Of a stretch of 64,000 nucleotides of DNA, positions 17,132 through 62,461 are shown piece by piece. A program made the position numbers and the translations under genes. The DNA is from Patescibacteria group bacterium (GTDB lineage Bacteria > Patescibacteriota > Minisyncoccia > Phycocordibacterales > UBA9973). Location: positions 35,717 to 99,716 of the forward strand of contig JBBTUY010000004.1 in the NCBI GenBank assembly GCA_038063515.1. Direction: 5' to 3'. How positions within the stretch are numbered: the stretch's first letter is position 1; every line of letters starts with the position of its first letter. Below the pieces are notes generated by a model, which worked only from the letters and a program-made list of their open reading frames with translations, searched no databases and was not told the origin of the DNA.

Positions 17132-17278
17132 CTATGGTTCCAGGAGGTTCAAGTGTAGCATCGTGGCTTTTACAAGCCACGATGCTACAAACAAGGCAAC
17201 TGTCACAAGGACAATTACCATAACTATCAATACTATAGGATGCAATACGACTACATCCTTATCTTCTTCTTTTTTCAT
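17132..17278 (-). CDS. Small (48 aa) single-TM peptide MKKEEDKDVVVLHPIVLIVMVIVLVTVALFVASWLVKATMLHLNLLEP with a perfect Shine-Dalgarno sequence. Lies inside the IR-bounded module.
   Basis: GAGGAGG-5nt-ATG. A perfect 15-bp hairpin (gtagcatcgtggctt/aagccacgatgctac) is embedded in the coding region. The stop sits in the loop of a CCTCCTG/CAGGAGG hairpin. Internal start chosen over the 71-aa track ORF. Confidence 0.4.
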   Translation of the reverse strand: MKKEEDKDVVVLHPIVLIVMVIVLVTVALFVASWLVKATMLHLNLLEP

Positions 17279-17334
17279 AAGTACCTCCTCTAAAAAAATA
17301 CAGTATTCAAAAAAAAAAAGCAACCTTATGCCAT

Positions 17335-17363
17335 GCTTGTCAAACACCCGATGTTTAACAAGC
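17335..17363. repeat. Right 29-nt inverted repeat (gcttgtcaaacacccgatgtttaacaagc). Overlaps the last codons and stop of smc.
   Basis: Reverse complement of the 16997..17025 repeat with 1 mismatch. Confidence 0.8.
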
Positions 17364-19594
17364 TACTTTGCAATTTGAGTGGCTTCGTCAAACTTTACAG
17401 ATAGAAGTTTTGATGCGCCATTACTAGCTATTGTTACACCATACAAAACTCCAGCACGAGACATAGTCTCTCTGTTGTGAGTCACGACGATAAGCTGTGA
17501 ATGCTTTGAGAGCTTCTCTATCATGTCCCCATATTTACGAGAGTTTGCTTCATCGAGTGCGGCATCTGTCTCATCTAATACGAGGAATGGTGGAGGATTT
17601 ACTTGTGACATAGCGAAAAGTATGGCGATAGAAGTGAGTGACCTCTCGCCACCTGAGAGTGCATGAAGTTCTTTTACTTTTTTATGAGGCAGTGATACGT
17701 CTATCTCTATCCCCTGCTCGAATACAAGCTCTTCATCTGTCTCAAGCAAAAATTCCCCATCTTCATCTTTTTTCTTTCTTTTATTTTCCACCACGACTGA
17801 AAGGTGTCCATGTCCACCACCAAACATGAGAGAGAAGAATTCTTGAAATTCTACATTTATTTTCTTGATACCTTCTTTGAATTCTATGTCTATCTTTTCT
17901 TTCAAATCTTTAATAAGAACATTCAAAGACTCTATACTCTGTGTGAGATCTTCTATCTCTTTTTGTAAAAATTCATCTCTTTCCGTAACCTCTTTAAATT
18001 CTTTCATTATATCAGACGCATTTCCAAGCCCCGCATCTTCGAGTTTGATTTTAATACGCTCTATACGTCTCTTTAATTCATCTTGAGAGCCCTGAGTAAA
18101 ATCCGGATCTTTTACAACAAAATCTTTGTATGATAATATCTCTCTACCTATGAGCACTGCCCCTTCTTTGATCTCGTTTTCAAAAGACTCAGCTCTACTG
18201 TGTAAATTTTCTTCTTTTAGATTTAAAATTCCGAGAGCTGAGGACAACTCCTGATATTTAACTTTAAATTTAAATTTCTCTTTTTCGAGATCTCGAAGTG
18301 CTTCCATCTCTGTATTGATTTCATTTTTAACATTTTCAACACTCTCTCTAAATTCTTTTTCTTTTCTTTCTAGGCCTTCTATTTCTTTTAAGATTTGTGT
18401 TTGCGTAGCTTGCAAAGCTTCTAATTCAAGGTTGATTTTCTCTTCTGTTTGTTCCTTTTTATTTTTATTAAGGGATTGTAGTATGTTTTTTATCCTGTCC
18501 AAGATAGGCTTGATCTCATCTATGGTATTTTTAGAAATTGCTTCATCTATACCGAAGTTTATCTCCTCGATAAAGACTTCCATCTCTCTTTGAGTTAAAG
18601 CCACCACTTCAGTACTCACTTCCTTTCTGCGAGTTTCTCCTTCTATCATTCCTTCTATGCGACCAAGCTTTCTGCTTATCTCAGCTTTTAAGTTACGGAT
18701 TTCATTTAATTTATTTTCTATCTCTCGTAATTCTTCAATTTTCTTATTCCCTTTTGTTGGAGCTTCCTCTTCGTCTGATATTTTTCCTGACACATCTTCG
18801 AGCTCTTTTAGGACTTTATGCTTTTCGAATGTAAGATTAGACTTTTCTTTCTCTAAGAAAATACTTTCTTTTTTAAGATACTCCATATATAGCTGTCCCA
18901 GCTCTATCTGCATATCTTTTGCTCTTTCAAACTTCTCTACCTGTCTCTTTAAAAAGTTAAGGTGGGGCGCATTTTCTCTGCGAAGTATCCCCACTTCTTT
19001 CATGTTTGTTTCGGTACGCTCAAGCTTCTTTTCAGATTCTTTTATTTTATATTGATAAACTTTGAGACCAAGTGCATCTTCTATCATCTCACGCCTCTCA
19101 CGTGAATTCGCATTTAGTATTCTGTCCGCTTCACCTTGAGAGATAATGTGGTGCCCTGAGGAGCCAATGTTAAGTGAAGACAGAAGATTGTGAATATCTT
19201 TAAGACGAACTTCGCTCCCATTTAAAATATATTTATTAAGTCCATCCGCATACACTTCACGTGAAATACAGATAGTATCATAATTCAAATCTATGTTTTC
19301 TCCATTTTCATTTGAAAGTTTAAATATCTTATCTGAGTTATCGAAATATATTTTTACCTGCGCGCTCGTACCTTTTGATAAACTTTTTGATCCTTTAAAG
19401 ATAAGATCGAGTCCAGACTTACCACGCATGGATTTCATAGACTGCTCTCCAAGGACGTATCTAAATGCTTCCACGACATTAGACTTCCCAGAACCATTCG
19501 GCCCCACAACACAAGTCACAGGGCTACCAAAATCTAAAACACTTTTTTGTGCAAAAGATTTAAATCCGTTTATTTCAAGTGTCTTGAGACGCAT
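17363..19594 (-). CDS. smc: SMC-family chromosome-condensation ATPase, unusually short (743 aa). No recognisable hinge domain.
   Basis: N-terminal Walker A GPNGSGKSN plus FKSF. C-terminal LSGGERSLTSIA signature and LVLDETDAALD Walker B. Long E/K-rich coiled coil between them. rnc-smc synteny supports SMC rather than RecN/SbcC. Confidence 0.75.
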   Translation of the reverse strand: MRLKTLEINGFKSFAQKSVLDFGSPVTCVVGPNGSGKSNVVEAFRYVLGEQSMKSMRGKSGLDLIFKGSKSLSKGTSAQVKIYFDNSDKIFKLSNENGENIDLNYDTICISREVYADGLNKYILNGSEVRLKDIHNLLSSLNIGSSGHHIISQGEADRILNANSRERREMIEDALGLKVYQYKIKESEKKLERTETNMKEVGILRRENAPHLNFLKRQVEKFERAKDMQIELGQLYMEYLKKESIFLEKEKSNLTFEKHKVLKELEDVSGKISDEEEAPTKGNKKIEELREIENKLNEIRNLKAEISRKLGRIEGMIEGETRRKEVSTEVVALTQREMEVFIEEINFGIDEAISKNTIDEIKPILDRIKNILQSLNKNKKEQTEEKINLELEALQATQTQILKEIEGLERKEKEFRESVENVKNEINTEMEALRDLEKEKFKFKVKYQELSSALGILNLKEENLHSRAESFENEIKEGAVLIGREILSYKDFVVKDPDFTQGSQDELKRRIERIKIKLEDAGLGNASDIMKEFKEVTERDEFLQKEIEDLTQSIESLNVLIKDLKEKIDIEFKEGIKKINVEFQEFFSLMFGGGHGHLSVVVENKRKKKDEDGEFLLETDEELVFEQGIEIDVSLPHKKVKELHALSGGERSLTSIAILFAMSQVNPPPFLVLDETDAALDEANSRKYGDMIEKLSKHSQLIVVTHNRETMSRAGVLYGVTIASNGASKLLSVKFDEATQIAK

Positions 19595-19615
19595 AGTATC
19601 ATCTTACCATTAGAT

Positions 19616-20311
19616 CTAATCAACCCAATTTTTTATTTTTAATGCAGCTTCGGCTGCTTTCACTTCCGCTTCTTGTTTACTCTTACCGTTGCCTTCTGCT
19701 ATTTTAGATGTACCGAAAAATATACCAACAGTAAACTGCTTGTTGTGGTCAGGACCTATCTCATGCAAAACTTTGTATGCTGGGGTCACTTGTAGGAATT
19801 CCTGTGCCTTTTCTTGAATCAAACTTTTAGCATCACGCCAAAGCTTTTTGTTCACTATTTCATCAGTCTTTATGAGAAGATTTTCTGTAATAAATTTATT
19901 TACTGTTTCATAATTAGAGTCGAGATACATGGCACCAATGTATGCCTCATATGTATTTGCGAGGATGTATTGTCGTGCCTTCCCGTGATCCTTCGCTTCT
20001 CCTTTTGATAAAAGCAGATAATCATTCATACCTAACTCACTGGCTACTTCAGATATGATAGTCGCATTAACGAGTGCAGAACGCACAGCAGTCAACTCTC
20101 CTTCTGTATAATTTGAATATTTCTTATATAAATAATCTGTAGAGATGAGCTCGAGAACTGCGTCACCTAAGAATTCTAGACGTTCGTTGTGAGAAGTCTT
20201 CACACCGACATTTTCATTGATATATGAACGGTGTGTAAAAGCTTGTCTTAATAAATTTTTATCTTTAAAAAAGATATTTGTTTTTTTCTCAAAATTTTCA
20301 AAATTAATCAT
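19616..20311 (-). CDS. rnc: Ribonuclease III
   Basis: ERLEFLGDAVLEL catalytic signature and C-terminal dsRBD. Start set at the internal Met (MINFENF...). The longer track ORF would overlap the upstream gene by 155 nt. Confidence 0.85.
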   Translation of the reverse strand: MINFENFEKKTNIFFKDKNLLRQAFTHRSYINENVGVKTSHNERLEFLGDAVLELISTDYLYKKYSNYTEGELTAVRSALVNATIISEVASELGMNDYLLLSKGEAKDHGKARQYILANTYEAYIGAMYLDSNYETVNKFITENLLIKTDEIVNKKLWRDAKSLIQEKAQEFLQVTPAYKVLHEIGPDHNKQFTVGIFFGTSKIAEGNGKSKQEAEVKAAEAALKIKNWVD

Positions 20312-20327
20312 TTTATTATCTGTATTA

Positions 20328-21278
20328 CTATTTATTCGTATTGTTTGAAATAATCTCCACCGCTTTTTTAATGATTGGTAATATATCGTTATATATTCGG
20401 AGTTCGGCAAGAGCAGATAATGAGAACCACCGTGCATTATCAAGTCCAGTAGAATCCTCAAGTACAAGTTCTTTGTATTCACTCTCTGCTAGGAAATACA
20501 CTACCCTTTTTAAACTTCTCCCATTAACTGGGTGATTTGCCACATACTCGTTTTGACCTAATTTTTCTTTTATAACTACGTCGAGTCCTATCTCTTCTTT
20601 AATCTCTCTGATGGTAGCCTGTTCTTCATTTTCACCCTCTTCAATGCCACCCTTTGAAAGGGTCCAATAACCAAAAACATCATGAACAAGAGCAAAGAAA
20701 ATTTCACTACCCTGTGCACCCTGCCTTACAGCATAGACCAGTGCCCCACCCTTTCTCTCCACAGGTAAAGTAGAGATGTCTACAGGCTCACCAAAATTTT
20801 TATCTTTTGTTTTGGTCTTCTGCTCTTTATCAGGCTCACCGAGCTCTTTGTATACTGCACCGAGTACTCCATTTACAAATTTACTAGAATTCTCCCCGCC
20901 GAAGCTTTTTGCTAATTCTATAGATTCATTTATAGCTACCTTAGGAGGTACTTGTACCCTGTTGCCAAAAAGTAGCTCACACAAGCCTATGCGTAATATA
21001 TTTCTATCTACAATAGAAATCTTATCTATAGGCCAGTCAGGTGCAGCTTTTTCTATGACTTCGTCTATGACAGTACGATTCTTTAATATTTGATCAATGA
21101 GAGAATGCACAAAAGCATCATCTGTGGCTTCAGGCATGAACTCTTTTAAATTTCTTTTTAGAATCTCACTTATGACTTCACTTTCTTTGTGTTCTCCACT
21201 CTTTTTTTCAACAGGCATGAAATCCCATTCAAAGAGGGTTTGGAGCACTATTGATCTTGAGAGGTGCCTGTTTGCCAT
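20328..21278 (-). CDS. nusB: Fusion protein: NusB antitermination-factor domain (N) plus NUDIX hydrolase domain (C)
   Basis: N-half has a NusB-like helical domain (MANRHLSRSIVLQTLFEWDF...LAKSFGGENSSKFVNGVLGAV). C-half has a perfect Nudix box GGIEEGENEEQATIREIKEEIGL (Gx5Ex7REUxEExGU). Confidence 0.7.
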   Translation of the reverse strand: MANRHLSRSIVLQTLFEWDFMPVEKKSGEHKESEVISEILKRNLKEFMPEATDDAFVHSLIDQILKNRTVIDEVIEKAAPDWPIDKISIVDRNILRIGLCELLFGNRVQVPPKVAINESIELAKSFGGENSSKFVNGVLGAVYKELGEPDKEQKTKTKDKNFGEPVDISTLPVERKGGALVYAVRQGAQGSEIFFALVHDVFGYWTLSKGGIEEGENEEQATIREIKEEIGLDVVIKEKLGQNEYVANHPVNGRSLKRVVYFLAESEYKELVLEDSTGLDNARWFSLSALAELRIYNDILPIIKKAVEIISNNTNK

Positions 21279-21349
21279 AAATTAATGAGCTATAGAAAAC
21301 AAGTTAACTAATTAACACCCAAAATAATCAAAATAATATTGGGTAGTAA

Positions 21350-21583
21350 TTACTTAGCTTCAGATGGAGCAGCTTTAGCCTTAGCTTTTTTCTGCTTTTT
21401 CTCTGTCTTTTTTACTAAATCAAATACCTTTTTACCTCTATAAAAACCGCAAGTAGAACAGACTGTGTGACGTCTCTTCATAGCCGCGCAATTAGTACAC
21501 TTAGCAAAGCTAGTGCTCTCTAAAGCGTGGTGAGAACGCCTGTTCTTTGTATGCGATTTTGTATGTCTCATTCGTACTACCAT
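21350..21583 (-). CDS. rpmF: 50S ribosomal protein L32 with a Lys/Ala-rich C-terminal extension
   Basis: MVVRMRHTKSHTKNRRSHHAL N-terminus plus a CxxC...CxxC zinc ribbon. Confidence 0.85.
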   Translation of the reverse strand: MVVRMRHTKSHTKNRRSHHALESTSFAKCTNCAAMKRRHTVCSTCGFYRGKKVFDLVKKTEKKQKKAKAKAAPSEAK

Positions 21584-21684
21584 AATATATACACTCTAGC
21601 ATATTATGGCTTAAATGCAAAATTATACGACCAGGAACCAACCGAGGACGTGAAAAAATCCAAGAATGTGCTATTATCTAAAAC

Positions 21685-22932
21685 ATGAACATAGATGAAC
21701 AAAAAGAGAATAGCAGTGATCACAAAAGACTCGGAAAAGAGCTTGGTATATTTACATTTAGTGATACAGTCGGAAAAGGATTGCCATTATGGCTACCAAA
21801 AGGTGCGACAATACGTCGTGAACTTGAACGCTTTATAGTTGACGAAGAGATAAGAAGAGGATACCTTCACGTACGAACACCTGATATCGCAAAACTTGAT
21901 TTATACAAAAAATCAGGTCACTACCCTCACTACAAAGACTCAATGTATGCACCAATACAAATAGATGATGAAGAATTTATGCTTCGTCCGATGACATGCC
22001 CTCATCACTTCGAACTTTATCTTTCTAGTCCTCATAGTTACCGTGAGCTACCTATGCGCATAGCAGAGCTTGCTCAACTTTATCGATATGAGCAATCAGG
22101 TGAACTCATGGGACTACAAAGAGTTCGAAGCTTCTGTCTCGCTGACGCACATATAATATGTAAAGACGAAGAACAAGCAGTGGATGAGATAAGTCGTGCA
22201 CTTGATCTTATTGAATACGTAACTTCAGTATTTAATTTAAAGCTTGATGTCGACTATAGATACCGATTATCTCTAGGTGATAGAAATAATACAGAAAAAT
22301 ACTACAAAAACGACAATGCCTGGGAAAAAGGCGAAGACTTGCTTCGCAAATTAATGCAGAAAAGAGGTTCAAAATTTGAAGAAGCTAAAGATGAAGCTGC
22401 TTTTTATGGACCAAAGATAGATATACAAATGAAAAACGTAAACGGCAAAGAGGATACTGCGTTTACTGTTCAGTATGATTTCTGCATGCCAAGTAGATTT
22501 AATTTAACATATGTTGGAGAAGATGGTCAAAATCATACTGCATTCGTAGTACACAGATCCTCTATCGGAGCCATAGAGCGAATAATGGCATTCCTCATAG
22601 AGAAATACAGTGGTGCCTTCCCTCTCTGGCTTTCTCCTGTGCAAGTAAAAATAATTCCCGTCCGAACAAATCACACTGACTATGCACAGAAAATATCTGA
22701 AATGCTCAAAGAGCATAATATTCGTGTGGAATTAGATGACAAAGATGAAAACTTAGGTACGAAAGTTCGCGATGCTAAAAATAACAAGATGCCTTACTGG
22801 ATCGTCATCGGTGATAAAGAAATAGAGGCGGATAAAGTAACTCTCGAATCTCGTGACTCTGGAAACTTAGGACAAATGTCAAAAGAAGGCCTCATAGCAA
22901 AATTATTAGAAGAAATTAAAAATAAGAAATAA
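21685..22932 (+). CDS. thrS: Threonyl-tRNA synthetase, catalytic core plus anticodon-binding domain only. No N-terminal TGS or editing domains.
   Basis: Begins at the DHKRLGKELGIF motif that opens the ThrRS class II core. Motifs 2/3 are present and the C-terminal anticodon-binding domain is present. Only 415 aa. Confidence 0.8.
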   Translation: MNIDEQKENSSDHKRLGKELGIFTFSDTVGKGLPLWLPKGATIRRELERFIVDEEIRRGYLHVRTPDIAKLDLYKKSGHYPHYKDSMYAPIQIDDEEFMLRPMTCPHHFELYLSSPHSYRELPMRIAELAQLYRYEQSGELMGLQRVRSFCLADAHIICKDEEQAVDEISRALDLIEYVTSVFNLKLDVDYRYRLSLGDRNNTEKYYKNDNAWEKGEDLLRKLMQKRGSKFEEAKDEAAFYGPKIDIQMKNVNGKEDTAFTVQYDFCMPSRFNLTYVGEDGQNHTAFVVHRSSIGAIERIMAFLIEKYSGAFPLWLSPVQVKIIPVRTNHTDYAQKISEMLKEHNIRVELDDKDENLGTKVRDAKNNKMPYWIVIGDKEIEADKVTLESRDSGNLGQMSKEGLIAKLLEEIKNKK

Positions 22933-58689: not shown

Positions 58690-58781
58690 TGGCGGAGCCG
58701 GACGGATTCGAACCGTCGAGGGGTTTTGAAGCCCCTGCCTCTTTAGCAAAGAGGTACGTTAGACCACTCTGACACGGCTCC
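58690..58781 (-). tRNA. tRNA-Ser (anticodon GCT). Type II; CCA encoded; the D-arm pairs poorly.
   Basis: Manual fold of the reverse complement: acceptor GGAGCCG/CGGCTCC, anticodon stem CCTCT/AGAGG with loop TTGCTAA, long variable arm AGGGGCTTCAAAACCCCT, T-arm GACGG-TTCGAAT-CCGTC, G73, CCA. Confidence 0.65.
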
Positions 58782-58862
58782 TTTGGCTATTTTCATACTC
58801 TATCATATTATTATGGTTTTTCCATTTTTTTCTGGTATACTCTTTTTAGTTAGCAGATAGAA

Positions 58863-58952
58863 GGACAGATGGGTGAGTGGCTTAAACCAGCGGTTTACTA
58901 AACCGCCGTCCCCTTAAAAGGACCGTGAGTTCGAATCTCACTCTGTCCGCCA
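58863..58952 (+). tRNA. Type II Ser-like tRNA gene with an atypical anticodon loop (UUACUAA, apparent anticodon ACU); CCA encoded
   Basis: Manual fold: acceptor GGACAGA/TCTGTCC, D-stem GGT/ACC, anticodon stem GCGGT/ACCGC, long variable arm, T-arm GTGAG-TTCGAAT-CTCAC, G73, CCA. A34 is not expected in a bacterial tRNA-Ser. Confidence 0.55.
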
Positions 58953-59051: not shown

Positions 59052-59483
59052 ATGATTTTTCAAGAAGCACCACCAGATTTTAATAAGGAAATAGACGTCG
59101 TTGGCTGCTATGTCCAGTATGACGGTAAATTTGTTTTGCTTCATCGTCAACCATATAAAACCAATGGGAATAAATTAGGTCTTCCCGCGGGCAAGGTCGA
59201 TCGAGGAGAAAATATTCATCAGGCAATGAGTCGAGAGATTAAAGAAGAAACAGGCCTAGAAATACCCGAGGAAAATCTGGAACACATCGGTACAGTATTC
59301 GTTAGAAATGAAGGTCATGACATTGGCTACCACATGTTTATCACTCACTTGTCAGCTCAACCAGAAGTAATCATTAGTCCTAAAGAGCATCAGGCATATA
59401 TCTGGGCATCACCCTCTGAAGCACTCAAAATGGATTTGATACATGACTTAGACGACTGTATTAAGATGTATTACCAAATTTAA
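59052..59483 (+). CDS. NUDIX hydrolase
   Basis: Nudix box GKVDRGENIHQAMSREIKEETGL. 143 aa. Confidence 0.8.
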   Translation: MIFQEAPPDFNKEIDVVGCYVQYDGKFVLLHRQPYKTNGNKLGLPAGKVDRGENIHQAMSREIKEETGLEIPEENLEHIGTVFVRNEGHDIGYHMFITHLSAQPEVIISPKEHQAYIWASPSEALKMDLIHDLDDCIKMYYQI

Positions 59484-60716: not shown

Positions 60717-61103
60717 TTATTTAATTTTCTTTGTAACCTTTGCCACCTGCTTAGATACATCTTTCCACTCGCTTTTTATAGTCTTAGCTATAGCACTTAC
60801 GTCCTTGGCAGCAAGCTTGTATTCCTTTGCATAATTTTTAGATACTGTGTCTACTACTTTGTTGTAAATTGGCGCACTTACTTTCTTTGCCTTCTTTATC
60901 TCAGCACTTACTTCTTTCTTCATTTTAGCGATCAACGCCTTTGCTTTCTTTTGATTTGTTTTACCATCGGGACCCATAAGATAATAAGCTCCAGCACCTG
61001 CAAGTGCTACCCCCGCTGCACCTATGACTCCAAGAGAAACTTTCTCCCCTGTTGATAAGCCACCCTTTTTAACAGCTGCTGTACTTTTTGTATTTTTTTT
61101 CAT
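60717..61103 (-). CDS. YtxH-like (DUF948-related) membrane-anchored Lys/Ala-rich stress protein
   Basis: LGVIGAAGVALAGAGAYYLMGPDGK Gly-zipper TM segment followed by a K/A/E-rich amphipathic region. Confidence 0.4.
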   Translation of the reverse strand: MKKNTKSTAAVKKGGLSTGEKVSLGVIGAAGVALAGAGAYYLMGPDGKTNQKKAKALIAKMKKEVSAEIKKAKKVSAPIYNKVVDTVSKNYAKEYKLAAKDVSAIAKTIKSEWKDVSKQVAKVTKKIK

Positions 61104-61451: not shown

Positions 61452-61753
61452 GCGGGATAGAGAAGAGGAATCTCGCAAGGCTCAGCGGTTTTTATATGGG
61501 CCCCCTCAGAAGAAACTTTGAGGTGTGCACTCGTCAAATTCGGAGAAATCCTCTCTGCCATCTGGTAGAAAGACAATTCCGAGCTAAATTTTCCAAGTAA
61601 TTGGAGATAAATGTGTAGAGACTAGATGATGAGCTCCTTAATTAAATTTATTTAAAAAGGAGATGGTATAGTCCAGACCACAAACATTTTGGTAGTGAAA
61701 ACTATAGTGGTAAAGCATAACCTTGAGACGGCCGTTCGATTCGGCCTCCCGCA
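61452..61753 (+). ncRNA. ssrA: Candidate tmRNA (ssrA): 5' GCGGGA pairs with 3' TCCCGC+A, and a canonical T-arm (GGCCG-TTCGATT-CGGCC) immediately precedes the 3' acceptor strand
   Basis: A tRNA-like 3' end with no matching 5' acceptor within 100 nt; the complement is about 295 nt upstream. Possible P2 pairing CAAGG/CCTTG. CCA not encoded. Tag reading frame not identified. Confidence 0.3.
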
Positions 61754-61813: not shown

Positions 61814-62461
61814 TTATATAAATCCGTACTCTCGGAAAATATCTTCATAAATAGCTATTACTCTCTTTGCTTCACGTTGAGAAATCTCATATGAGAGACC
61901 TTCGTGTGCAACCCTGTTTCTTATTGTGTGCACTTCCCACGCAGAAGTAAGATTCCTAAATTTTTCTTGGTCTGTGCTTTTTAATTTATCACCCAGTGTA
62001 TCTCCTTTAAACCCGAGTTGACCTAAAAGGTCCTCAAGCATAGCATCAGCTTCTATGATGGCAAGTTTCCAGTCACTCGGAGACTGAGAGAAAAGATATG
62101 TGAGAGTCCTCACCCATCTACTATTTTCAGATACGTTATTCTCTCTTTCCTTCTTTTCTTCACGCTCCTTTTTATGATGAGCGTATTCTACTATCTCGTG
62201 ATGCATATGTGCGTGCTCCTTTTTTCTAATCTCAAGCATACGTACAAAACAGTACGACATAAGTGCGAGGAAAAACATTGCGAGGAAAAAGAGTATGACG
62301 TAAAAAGTGTCGAGTACGCTCTTCTGAAAAAAGATAGCTGCTAATCCTTTAGCTACGCTAACTTCGTGCCCAAACCAATAGTCAGGACTTAAATACTGAG
62401 ACTCAAGGAAAGTCCCCTCTATTAAACTATTTTGTCTTTCGTATGATCGCGCAACGTCCAT
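61814..62461 (-). CDS. Membrane-anchored protein with a C-terminal HEPN-like helical domain
   Basis: One or two TM helices (FYVILFFLAMFFLALMSYCFV), a His-rich linker, and a C-terminal domain ending in the R-x4-H motif (TIRNRVAHEG). Confidence 0.4.
   Translation of the reverse strand: MDVARSYERQNSLIEGTFLESQYLSPDYWFGHEVSVAKGLAAIFFQKSVLDTFYVILFFLAMFFLALMSYCFVRMLEIRKKEHAHMHHEIVEYAHHKKEREEKKERENNVSENSRWVRTLTYLFSQSPSDWKLAIIEADAMLEDLLGQLGFKGDTLGDKLKSTDQEKFRNLTSAWEVHTIRNRVAHEGLSYEISQREAKRVIAIYEDIFREYGFI

Follow-up and report, generated by a model that had tools for sequence, protein, structure and literature searches.

A Parcubacterial NusB protein fused to a Nudix-fold module with a predicted nucleoside-polyphosphate pocket and a variable catalytic glutamate

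What does a Nudix-fold module do at the C-terminal end of a transcription antitermination factor? NusB is a nearly universal single-domain factor, and it binds BoxA RNA together with S10 (NusE), nucleating the rRNA antitermination complex. The question was raised by the open reading frame (ORF) nusB::nudix, which was found in a window of 64,000 nucleotides (nt), the whole stretch of DNA analyzed here (forward strand of contig JBBTUY010000004.1 from assembly GCA_038063515.1, positions 35,717-99,716). This ORF had its ATG at window position 21278 and its stop codon at 20328-20330 (as given by the ORF list), and it formed a single continuous frame with no internal stops. The ORF and its parts were as follows, in window coordinates:

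20328..21278, minus strand: nusB::nudix ORF, 316 amino acids (aa)
20841..21278, minus strand: NusB domain, residues 1-146, all-helical
20763..20840, minus strand: Lys/Glu/Pro-rich linker, predicted to be flexible, residues 147-172
20337..20762, minus strand: Nudix-fold domain, classed by sequence and fold as Ap4A/ApnA-hydrolase type, residues 173-314
20583..20651, minus strand: Nudix box GGIEEGENEEQATIREIKEEIGL, residues 210-232, located by regex scan

The gene nusB::nudix is real and is widespread in the Parcubacteria/Paceibacteria, ultra-small bacteria of the candidate phyla radiation (CPR). Pfam assigned NusB (PF01029) to residues 7-144 (E=9.7e-35; 120.3 bits vs. cut-off 23.1) and NUDIX (PF00293) to residues 202-301 (E=2.5e-14; 53.9 bits vs. 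cut-off 21.1), which together with the continuous frame bore out the claim of a first-pass annotation, made from the letters of the window, that one ORF fuses NusB and Nudix. The homologue search covered 5.8 billion proteins and gave at least 8000 matches, of which the best 120 were examined: all 120, with lengths of 299-334 aa and coming from several source databases, contained both Pfam domains. Where a source gave them a name, it was just "transcription antitermination factor NusB" or "N utilization substance protein B"; the organisms given were Nomurabacteria, Pacebacteria, Paceibacterota, and Patescibacteria. From a one-genome-per-species collection, in which 593 loci encoded a relative, the best 80 were used for all species-level counts given below; each of these 80 matched the query from residue 1 to at least residue 307 as a full-length fusion, with 53-74% identity, and the locus titles included Nomura-, Kaiser-, Adler-, Lloyd-, Vogel-, and Zambryskibacteria as well as the Parcubacteria group (several further titles read "Candidatus Saccharibacteria", but these came with third-party assemblies deposited in bulk, whose labels may be generic and not reflect true placement). 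Clustering at 50% yielded about 64 clusters of full-length fusions, the most distant of which were about 32% identical to the query.

The first-pass annotation had cautioned that an error at the junction might have merged two genes and had asked how far the fusion is conserved. The junction was in frame in all 120 best homologues and in all 80 species-level loci, and a local frameshift or assembly artefact was excluded because this held for every relative examined; as to conservation, at least 80 species-level Paceibacteria genomes encoded the full-length form. Separately, three singleton clusters (P0154, P0179, and P0206) displayed a NusB N-terminus followed by unrelated C-terminal sequence, which was cytidylyltransferase-like by eye only in P0154, and these may represent chimeric gene calls or further kinds of NusB fusion.

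The N-terminal module looked canonical and functional by model cut-off, fold, and BoxA-contact residues, and it was treated as a working NusB; all three lines agreed with its earlier description as NusB-like. The NCBIfam equivalog model TIGR01951 (nusB) scored 123.6 bits, above its cut-off of 88.35. A phmmer search with the N-terminal domain matched Thermotoga maritima NusB 1tzt (E=4e-20) and Aquifex NusB 2jr0/3r2c (4e-17), the AlphaFold2 (AF2) model placed helices across residues 4-146, and Foldseek aligned the NusB module with 1tzv and 3r2d at a template modeling (TM) score of 0.82 and with 1eyv at 0.79. The Aquifex NusB-NusE-BoxA structure has RNA contacts that begin at the NusB N-terminus, F122 stacked on U8, and E81 and K118 also contacting RNA, on or near the last helix alpha-7 (PMC3177189); F134, D91, and N130 of the window protein aligned with F122, E81, and K118, respectively, in the phmmer alignment. 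F134 and D91 were conserved in 98% and 94%, respectively, of a diverse set of 65 fusion proteins, made up of 64 cluster representatives and the query, and the N-terminus MANRHLSRS was invariant in the close clade.

Compared to canonical NusB (Aquifex 3R2C and T. maritima 1TZT), the N-terminal 146 residues shared the all-helical fold and the U8-pocket positions, but the canonical protein has just one domain, of about 140 aa, whereas here an extra 170 residues (linker plus Nudix) followed directly after helix alpha-7. A NusB-type RNA-binding domain is also known at the N-terminal end of an enzyme that acts on RNA, RsmB/Sun, the 16S rRNA m5C967 methyltransferase. Membership in that family was rejected: RsmB models matched residues 38-157 weakly (52 bits vs. 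cut-off 319) and Pfam detected no methyltransferase domain in the fusion protein, whereas the NusB model was well above its own cut-off.

The fused Nudix domain was classed as Ap4A/ApnA-hydrolase type, and not as a member of RppH or NudC, because of the profile alignment and the missed equivalog cut-offs. PF00293 was the sole Nudix-clan match in Pfam for the fusion protein, and the AF2 secondary structure agreed with the Nudix superfamily fold. The best phmmer matches were Aquifex Ap4A hydrolase 3i7u (4e-7), Thermus Ndx1 1vc8 (5e-7), and human NUDT2, followed by CT771 and Dcp2; Thermus Ndx1 is an Ap6A hydrolase. Foldseek likewise placed 3i7u at the top (E=2.9e-9; TM 0.89), with further matches to CT771, DR1025, mycobacterial MutT1, Ndx1 1vc8 (TM 0.84), and the Caenorhabditis elegans and human Ap4A hydrolases, and with the NrtR Nudix domain 3gz8 at rank 12. 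The family hidden Markov model (HMM) aligned with C. elegans Ap4A hydrolase 1KTG over the whole domain (residues 3-130; 49 bits) and with Escherichia coli RppH over the box region only (16.6 bits), the two reference sequences having been verified against the PDB. No NCBIfam equivalog cut-off was reached by the Nudix domain: the best RppH model, NF001936, gave 37-38 bits (cut-off 118) with a match only around the box, and the NAD(+) diphosphatase model NF001299 gave 27-29 bits (cut-off 158). A SQPWPFP-type motif, which we take to be the NudC family marker, was absent after the Nudix box on direct reading of the sequence. RppH or NudC membership was ruled out by these cut-offs and the profile alignment, so that the two earlier proposals for the domain, RppH-like and NAD-cap decapping (NudC-like), were not supported as family assignments.

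The similarity to the asymmetrical Nudix-type Ap4A/ApnA hydrolases (Aquifex aq_158 3I7U, 1VC8, 1KTG, human NUDT2 3U53, and Chlamydia CT771) comprised a shared W-T-x-[PS]-K-G motif, a Lys (K83 in C. elegans), and an aromatic residue (Y121 in C. elegans); the differences were (i) the fusion to NusB and (ii) the RE Glu, which about half of the species in the family had exchanged for residues such as K, A, S, I, or V. With RppH, a Nudix enzyme acting on RNA 5' ends, the fusion shared the position of the catalytic Glu (E53, equivalent to E225 here), and the window protein had every box residue, but the E53 equivalent was not conserved across the NusB-Nudix family.

This drift of the catalytic Glu was seen inside an otherwise conserved pocket, and the family appears, by sequence comparison, to keep the residues that hold a nucleoside polyphosphate while letting the cleaving Glu go. 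The window protein itself had a complete box: GGIEEGENEEQATIREIKEEIGL fitted GX5EX7REUXEEXGU at every position in the regex scan, in line with the perfect Nudix box noted in the first-pass annotation. Among the 80 species, the complete key set (G210, E216, R224, E225, E228, E229, and G231) was found in 24, and the individual residues were kept to different extents (E229 in 72, E216 in 70, R224 in 68, E228 in 63, and E225 in 45); among the 65 diverse sequences, a full box was found in 10, the query being one of them. E225 was replaced by K (13 species), A (8), S (4), I (3), and others, it ranked 110 of 139 Nudix-domain positions by entropy in the 80 species, i.e., among the least conserved, and it was kept in 13 of the 64 diverse cluster representatives (20%). 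Its loss extended to close species, namely, L004 (72% identity; TIKKIKEEIGL), L007 (KI), and L009 (TLKAIKKEIGL). Twelve residues (G178, H199, D200, F202, G203, W205, Y245, P250, K257, G278, W284, and Y296) were 100% conserved in the 80 species, and K209 was 99% conserved. The 35 species without E225 retained the identical invariant residue set, and the mean pairwise identity of their Nudix domains was 54.7%, vs. 56.8% for the 45 species with E225. The E225 state changed at least 26 times over 139 taxa, vs. 45 for random tip placement, as counted on a neighbor-joining tree built without the box columns, both the tree and the parsimony count being rough.

The alignment with enzymes of known structure located E225 as the Glu of the RE pair, equivalent to RppH E53 and human Ap4A hydrolase E58. 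E. coli RppH-E53A is catalytically inactive (PMC6061791). The E58A form of human Ap4A hydrolase (4ICK and 4IJX) and entry 1XSA have Ala exactly at the E225 position, and 4IJX was solved with a bound ligand; many natural members of the fusion family resemble, in sequence, this engineered E58A-type catalytic mutant. As for the pocket, the family HMM aligned K209, K257, W284, and Y296 with K36, K83, W109, and Y121, respectively, of C. elegans Ap4A hydrolase. Three residues of Ap4A hydrolases (the PKG Lys, the loop-5 Tyr, and one more Lys) hold phosphate, and the adenine is stacked between the loop-5 Tyr and a second Tyr/Phe (PMC4734340); these residue roles were taken from a comparison of the Plasmodium and human enzymes in that paper, and the literature search found no paper assigning roles to Tyr76 and Tyr121 of the C. 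elegans enzyme.

Four divergent NusB fusions (P0197, P0253, P0260, and P0268) had a C-terminal domain without a Nudix box, and three of them (P0253, P0260, and P0268) also displayed a long Lys/Glu-rich stretch. The family profile gave 62 bits for P0197 and a 17-bit remnant for P0253, did not recognize P0260, and had no match in P0268.

The two modules were joined by the Lys/Glu-rich linker GEPDKEQKTKTKDKNFGEPVDISTLP (residues 147-172), which left the NusB part directly after helix alpha-7, beside the BoxA site. In the 80 species the linker was 17-35 aa long (median 24), consisted of 21% K, 14% E, and 14% P, and was flanked by the conserved motifs GEPGKEQ and D-I-x-K-L-P. The prediction is thus of NusB and Nudix modules that are independent of each other and connected by a flexible basic tether, because the predicted local distance difference test (pLDDT) of the AF2 model was below 50 over residues 149-166 (predicted disordered) and the predicted TM score (pTM) of the whole model was 0.50.

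Three neighboring genes and a second Nudix ORF elsewhere in the window were annotated as follows:

21350..21583, minus strand: rpmF (ribosomal protein L32; Pfam Ribosomal_L32p), 71 nt upstream of nusB::nudix
19616..20311, minus strand: rnc (RNase III; Pfam Ribonucleas_3_3, Ribonuclease_3, and dsrm)
17363..19594, minus strand: short SMC-like ATPase of 743 aa (Pfam SMC_N, residues 3-728), the next gene after rnc
59052-59483, plus strand: stand-alone Nudix ORF of 143 aa with the intact box GKVDRGENIHQAMSREIKEETGL

The likely start of rnc (MINFENF, at 20311) lay 16 nt past the stop codon of nusB::nudix on the same strand. Conservation of these neighbors was assessed by tblastn of the adjacent proteins of the window against the 80 species-level loci: rpmF was directly upstream of nusB::nudix in 79, rnc was directly downstream in all 80 (at most 400 nt away in 77), and an smc match followed rnc in 70. 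The earlier remark that the RNase III gene comes immediately after the fusion thus held for this genome and for its relatives, and the order rpmF-nusB::nudix-rnc is a stable trait of the lineage. A promoter/terminator scan of 17200-21800 gave the same counts as shuffled sequence, and it detected no terminator-like site in the minus-strand intervals that separate rpmF, nusB::nudix, rnc, and smc, a result compatible with co-transcription and not itself evidence for it. In model bacteria, plsX and fab genes come after rpmF, and rnc adjoins smc and ftsY; the order rpmF-nusB::nudix-rnc-smc may reflect the loss of fatty-acid synthesis genes in reduced genomes. The SMC-like gene after rnc had no hinge-domain match in Pfam and may be a short, possibly hinge-less SMC. 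Divergent from rpmF lay a threonyl-tRNA-synthetase-like ORF (21685-22932, plus strand, 415 aa), which comprised the class II core and the anticodon-binding domain only, without an N-terminal TGS or editing domain.

The stand-alone Nudix ORF at 59052-59483 was of the MutT/NudG-like NTP-diphosphatase type and scored below all equivalog cut-offs. Its similarity to the fused domain was restricted to the box, and the fused Nudix domain as a recent duplicate of this gene was ruled out on that account.

What is the fused module for, then? The explanation we favor, tentatively and at somewhat less than even confidence, is a family-conserved binding of a nucleoside-polyphosphate group beside BoxA, with the 5' group of the nascent transcript as the ligand and with hydrolysis optional. 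The selected job of the Nudix module would be to bind such a group next to the BoxA site of NusB, because conservation covers the pocket (the PKG-type Lys, another Lys, the His, and a pair of stacking Tyr) but does not extend to the catalytic Glu. The ligand would sit at the 5' end of the nascent transcript that bears BoxA (the pre-rRNA leader), as its terminal triphosphate or an Np4-type cap, a choice suggested by three considerations: (i) the tether leaves NusB at its RNA-binding face; (ii) the E. coli antitermination complex boosts RNase III processing, reportedly in part by bridging the rRNA ends; and (iii) SuhB is required in E. coli to keep NusB/E stably bound. For the second, a preprint has shown that the E. 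coli complex increases co-transcriptional RNase III processing, and one of its section headings attributes the boost partly to stable bridging of the rRNA 5' and 3' ends (bioRxiv 10.64898/2026.03.17.712431); for the third, the requirement for SuhB in stable NusB/E binding has been described (PMC6614801). The 5' leader, held on the elongating polymerase, would help the leader-trailer helix to form, and this helix would be cut by the co-encoded RNase III.

Hydrolysis would come on top of such binding in some lineages and appears to be optional for the family. Where the box is intact, as it is in this organism, the module would probably also hydrolyze the bound group (RppH-like 5'-end conversion or ApnA cleavage); the window protein is probably also an active hydrolase, because its box is complete and well kept in its close clade. 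The first-pass annotation had proposed that the fused domain places 5'-end chemistry on the antitermination complex, and this idea survived in part: it is possible for the window protein, with its complete box, but the family does not conserve E225 (45/80 species and 13/64 representatives). Tethered catalysis would accordingly not be the conserved function of the family, because E225 is variable while the pocket residues are invariant.

Known systems offer parallels for binding by a Nudix fold with catalysis lost. For the dead-box members, the nearest functional parallel is CF Im25/NUDT21, a pre-mRNA 3'-end processing factor whose Nudix fold binds Ap4A or ATP but does not hydrolyze them (PMC2425470). 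It differs from the fusion in being eukaryotic, a separate polypeptide, and a member of another Nudix subfamily that reads an internal RNA motif, so that the parallel is one of analogy and not of membership. SuhB is similar in being an enzyme fold that serves as an accessory subunit: in the rRNA antitermination complex it stabilizes bound NusB/E, and it also promotes processing by RNase III, but it has an inositol monophosphatase fold and is a separate, unfused dimer; any contact of the Nudix module to NusA or RNA polymerase (RNAP) here would be by analogy only. NrtR-type regulators provide a ligand-binding Nudix domain in transcription control, with a degenerate box that senses ADP-ribose.

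A more specific form of the proposal would make the module a 5'-end anchor, and this we consider unlikely though worth stating: the Nudix domain would clamp the ppp or Np4 terminus of the leader on the NusB-S10-BoxA complex, replacing the stabilizing role of SuhB, and the leader would be held at the RNA exit until the trailer is made, whereupon RNase III would cut, with hydrolysis as an optional release or timing step.

Several observations weigh against binding of a transcript 5' end as the conserved job. The choice of ligand derives solely from pocket homology, and the pocket itself is open to dispute at two points: Y245 probably corresponds to C. elegans Y76, an equivalence that depends on gap placement, and W205, W284, and Y261 could be conserved for fold stability and not for ligand contact. 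No defined NusB-Nudix interface was present in the AF2 model. No rRNA operon was found in the 64-kb window, and a scan of the window for the BoxA consensus GCTCTTTAACAA with at most 2 mismatches gave 11 matches vs. 11.1 expected by chance, a scan that was uninformative because the window lacked an rRNA operon. Finally, the box was well kept near the window protein, with E225 kept by 111 of the 128 sequences in the 70-79% identity range, and in the close clade (45 sequences) E229 was invariant and R224, E225, and E216 were each kept in at least 90%; catalysis may matter in this clade.

The likeliest of the alternatives, although we still think it unlikely, is a conserved catalytic role along the lines of the first-pass annotation, in which NusB delivers an RppH-like pyrophosphohydrolase or cap remover to BoxA transcripts and the 5' conversion triggers or licenses processing. 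The perfect box of the window protein, the conservation of the box in its close clade, and the conserved operon link with rnc all fit such a role, the RppH model was the (weak) best NCBIfam match of the domain, and E. coli RppH, a Nudix enzyme, is described as removing the 5' triphosphate and Np4 caps (PMC6061791 and PMC8833179). Against it, E225 was lost in 35 of 80 species and in 51 of 64 representatives, including species 70-72% identical to the query (L004 and L009), no decay of the domain followed this loss, and the RppH and NudC cut-offs were not reached.

Loss of E225 with retention of the domain could also be read in a second way, as a non-catalytic scaffold, with the Nudix fold stabilizing NusB-S10 on the polymerase by protein contacts, as SuhB does in E. 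coli, and with no nucleotide ligand involved. Drifting catalytic residues in a conserved domain are what such a scaffold would display, and there are known Nudix proteins that are not enzymes and act in protein interaction (PMC5389931). This account appears distinctly improbable, however, as the invariant residues are largely those that hold phosphate and adenine in Ap4A hydrolases, a pattern suggestive of a ligand pocket more than of a protein interface, and no partner was identified in this analysis.

The conserved pocket would equally suit a small-molecule sensor, in which the Nudix domain binds free Ap4A, ATP, or a related alarmone and tunes antitermination to the state of the cell in the manner of NrtR. 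An Ap4A-hydrolase pocket conserved without catalysis, the rank-12 structural match to NrtR (3gz8), and the binding of Ap4A and ATP without hydrolysis by CF Im25 (PMC2425470) are in its favor. It too must be called improbable, given that a flexible tether without predicted interdomain contact offers no obvious allosteric route to NusB; the account also overlaps with binding of the transcript 5' group, from which it differs only in the ligand.

That the two domains are functionally unrelated, a housekeeping Ap4A/NTP hydrolase having been fused by stop-codon loss in a streamlined genome and kept for co-expression only, is very unlikely. The closest relatives of the module were indeed free-standing Ap4A hydrolases, CPR genomes are compact, and the two domains are structurally independent in the AF2 model, but a housekeeping hydrolase should retain its catalytic Glu, which most lineages do not, the fusion persisted to about 32% identity and over many candidate phylum-level groups, and the genome had another intact MutT-like Nudix at 59052-59483. 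Both this reading and that of a conserved catalytic role were weakened because E225 was lost without decay of the domain.

A sequencing or assembly artefact joining two separate genes has a negligible probability: a few Nudix-only or NusB-only cluster representatives (P0211, P0226, and P0195) were the one observation in its favor, with no other support found, but the frame was continuous here, in the 120 best homologues, and in the 80 species-level genomes, and the Nudix-only representatives look like N-terminally truncated gene calls, unreliable as evidence of split genes, because each begins at a Leu of the fusion (P0226 at L146 and P0211 at L171).

Two further features of the window lay well apart from nusB::nudix:

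61481-61695, plus strand: group I catalytic intron (Rfam 63.9 bits, full model length)
58690-58952: two divergent tRNA-Ser genes, about 80 nt apart

The intron lay outside every tRNA found by ARAGORN and outside any detected rRNA, and the flanking ORFs (60717-61103 and 61814-62461) had no Pfam match. The anticodon of the tRNA-Ser gene at 58863-58952 (plus strand) was ACT, which is unusual in that its wobble position is A.

As for what is new, searches of the literature on NusB with Nudix and on NusB with CPR/Parcubacteria found no paper describing a NusB-Nudix fusion, and the 2017 review of the Nudix clan makes no mention of NusB (PMC5389931). The two-domain architecture is already visible in precomputed Pfam annotation, where sources label the protein simply NusB; what is added here is a NusB carrying an accessory Nudix module, a variant of known NusB.

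The second module on NusB spans a large part of the Parcubacteria/Paceibacteria lineage, hidden by the label "NusB", in organisms whose ribosome biogenesis is otherwise reduced and uncharacterized. Were it merely an attached housekeeping hydrolase, the fusion would be no more than a by-product of genome streamlining, of interest as a curiosity. A module that binds or processes BoxA transcripts at their 5' end, by contrast, would be an extra component of the rRNA antitermination complex, and antitermination would be physically linked to 5'-end status and to RNase III processing. Should the more specific form with a clamped leader terminus be true, it would represent a previously unrecognized way for an elongation complex to hold the 5' end of its RNA, together with a natural series of substrate-trapping Nudix variants. 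Across the family as a whole, Nudix boxes range from intact to dead while the rest of the domain stays conserved, a natural series that could serve to separate binding from catalysis in Nudix proteins.

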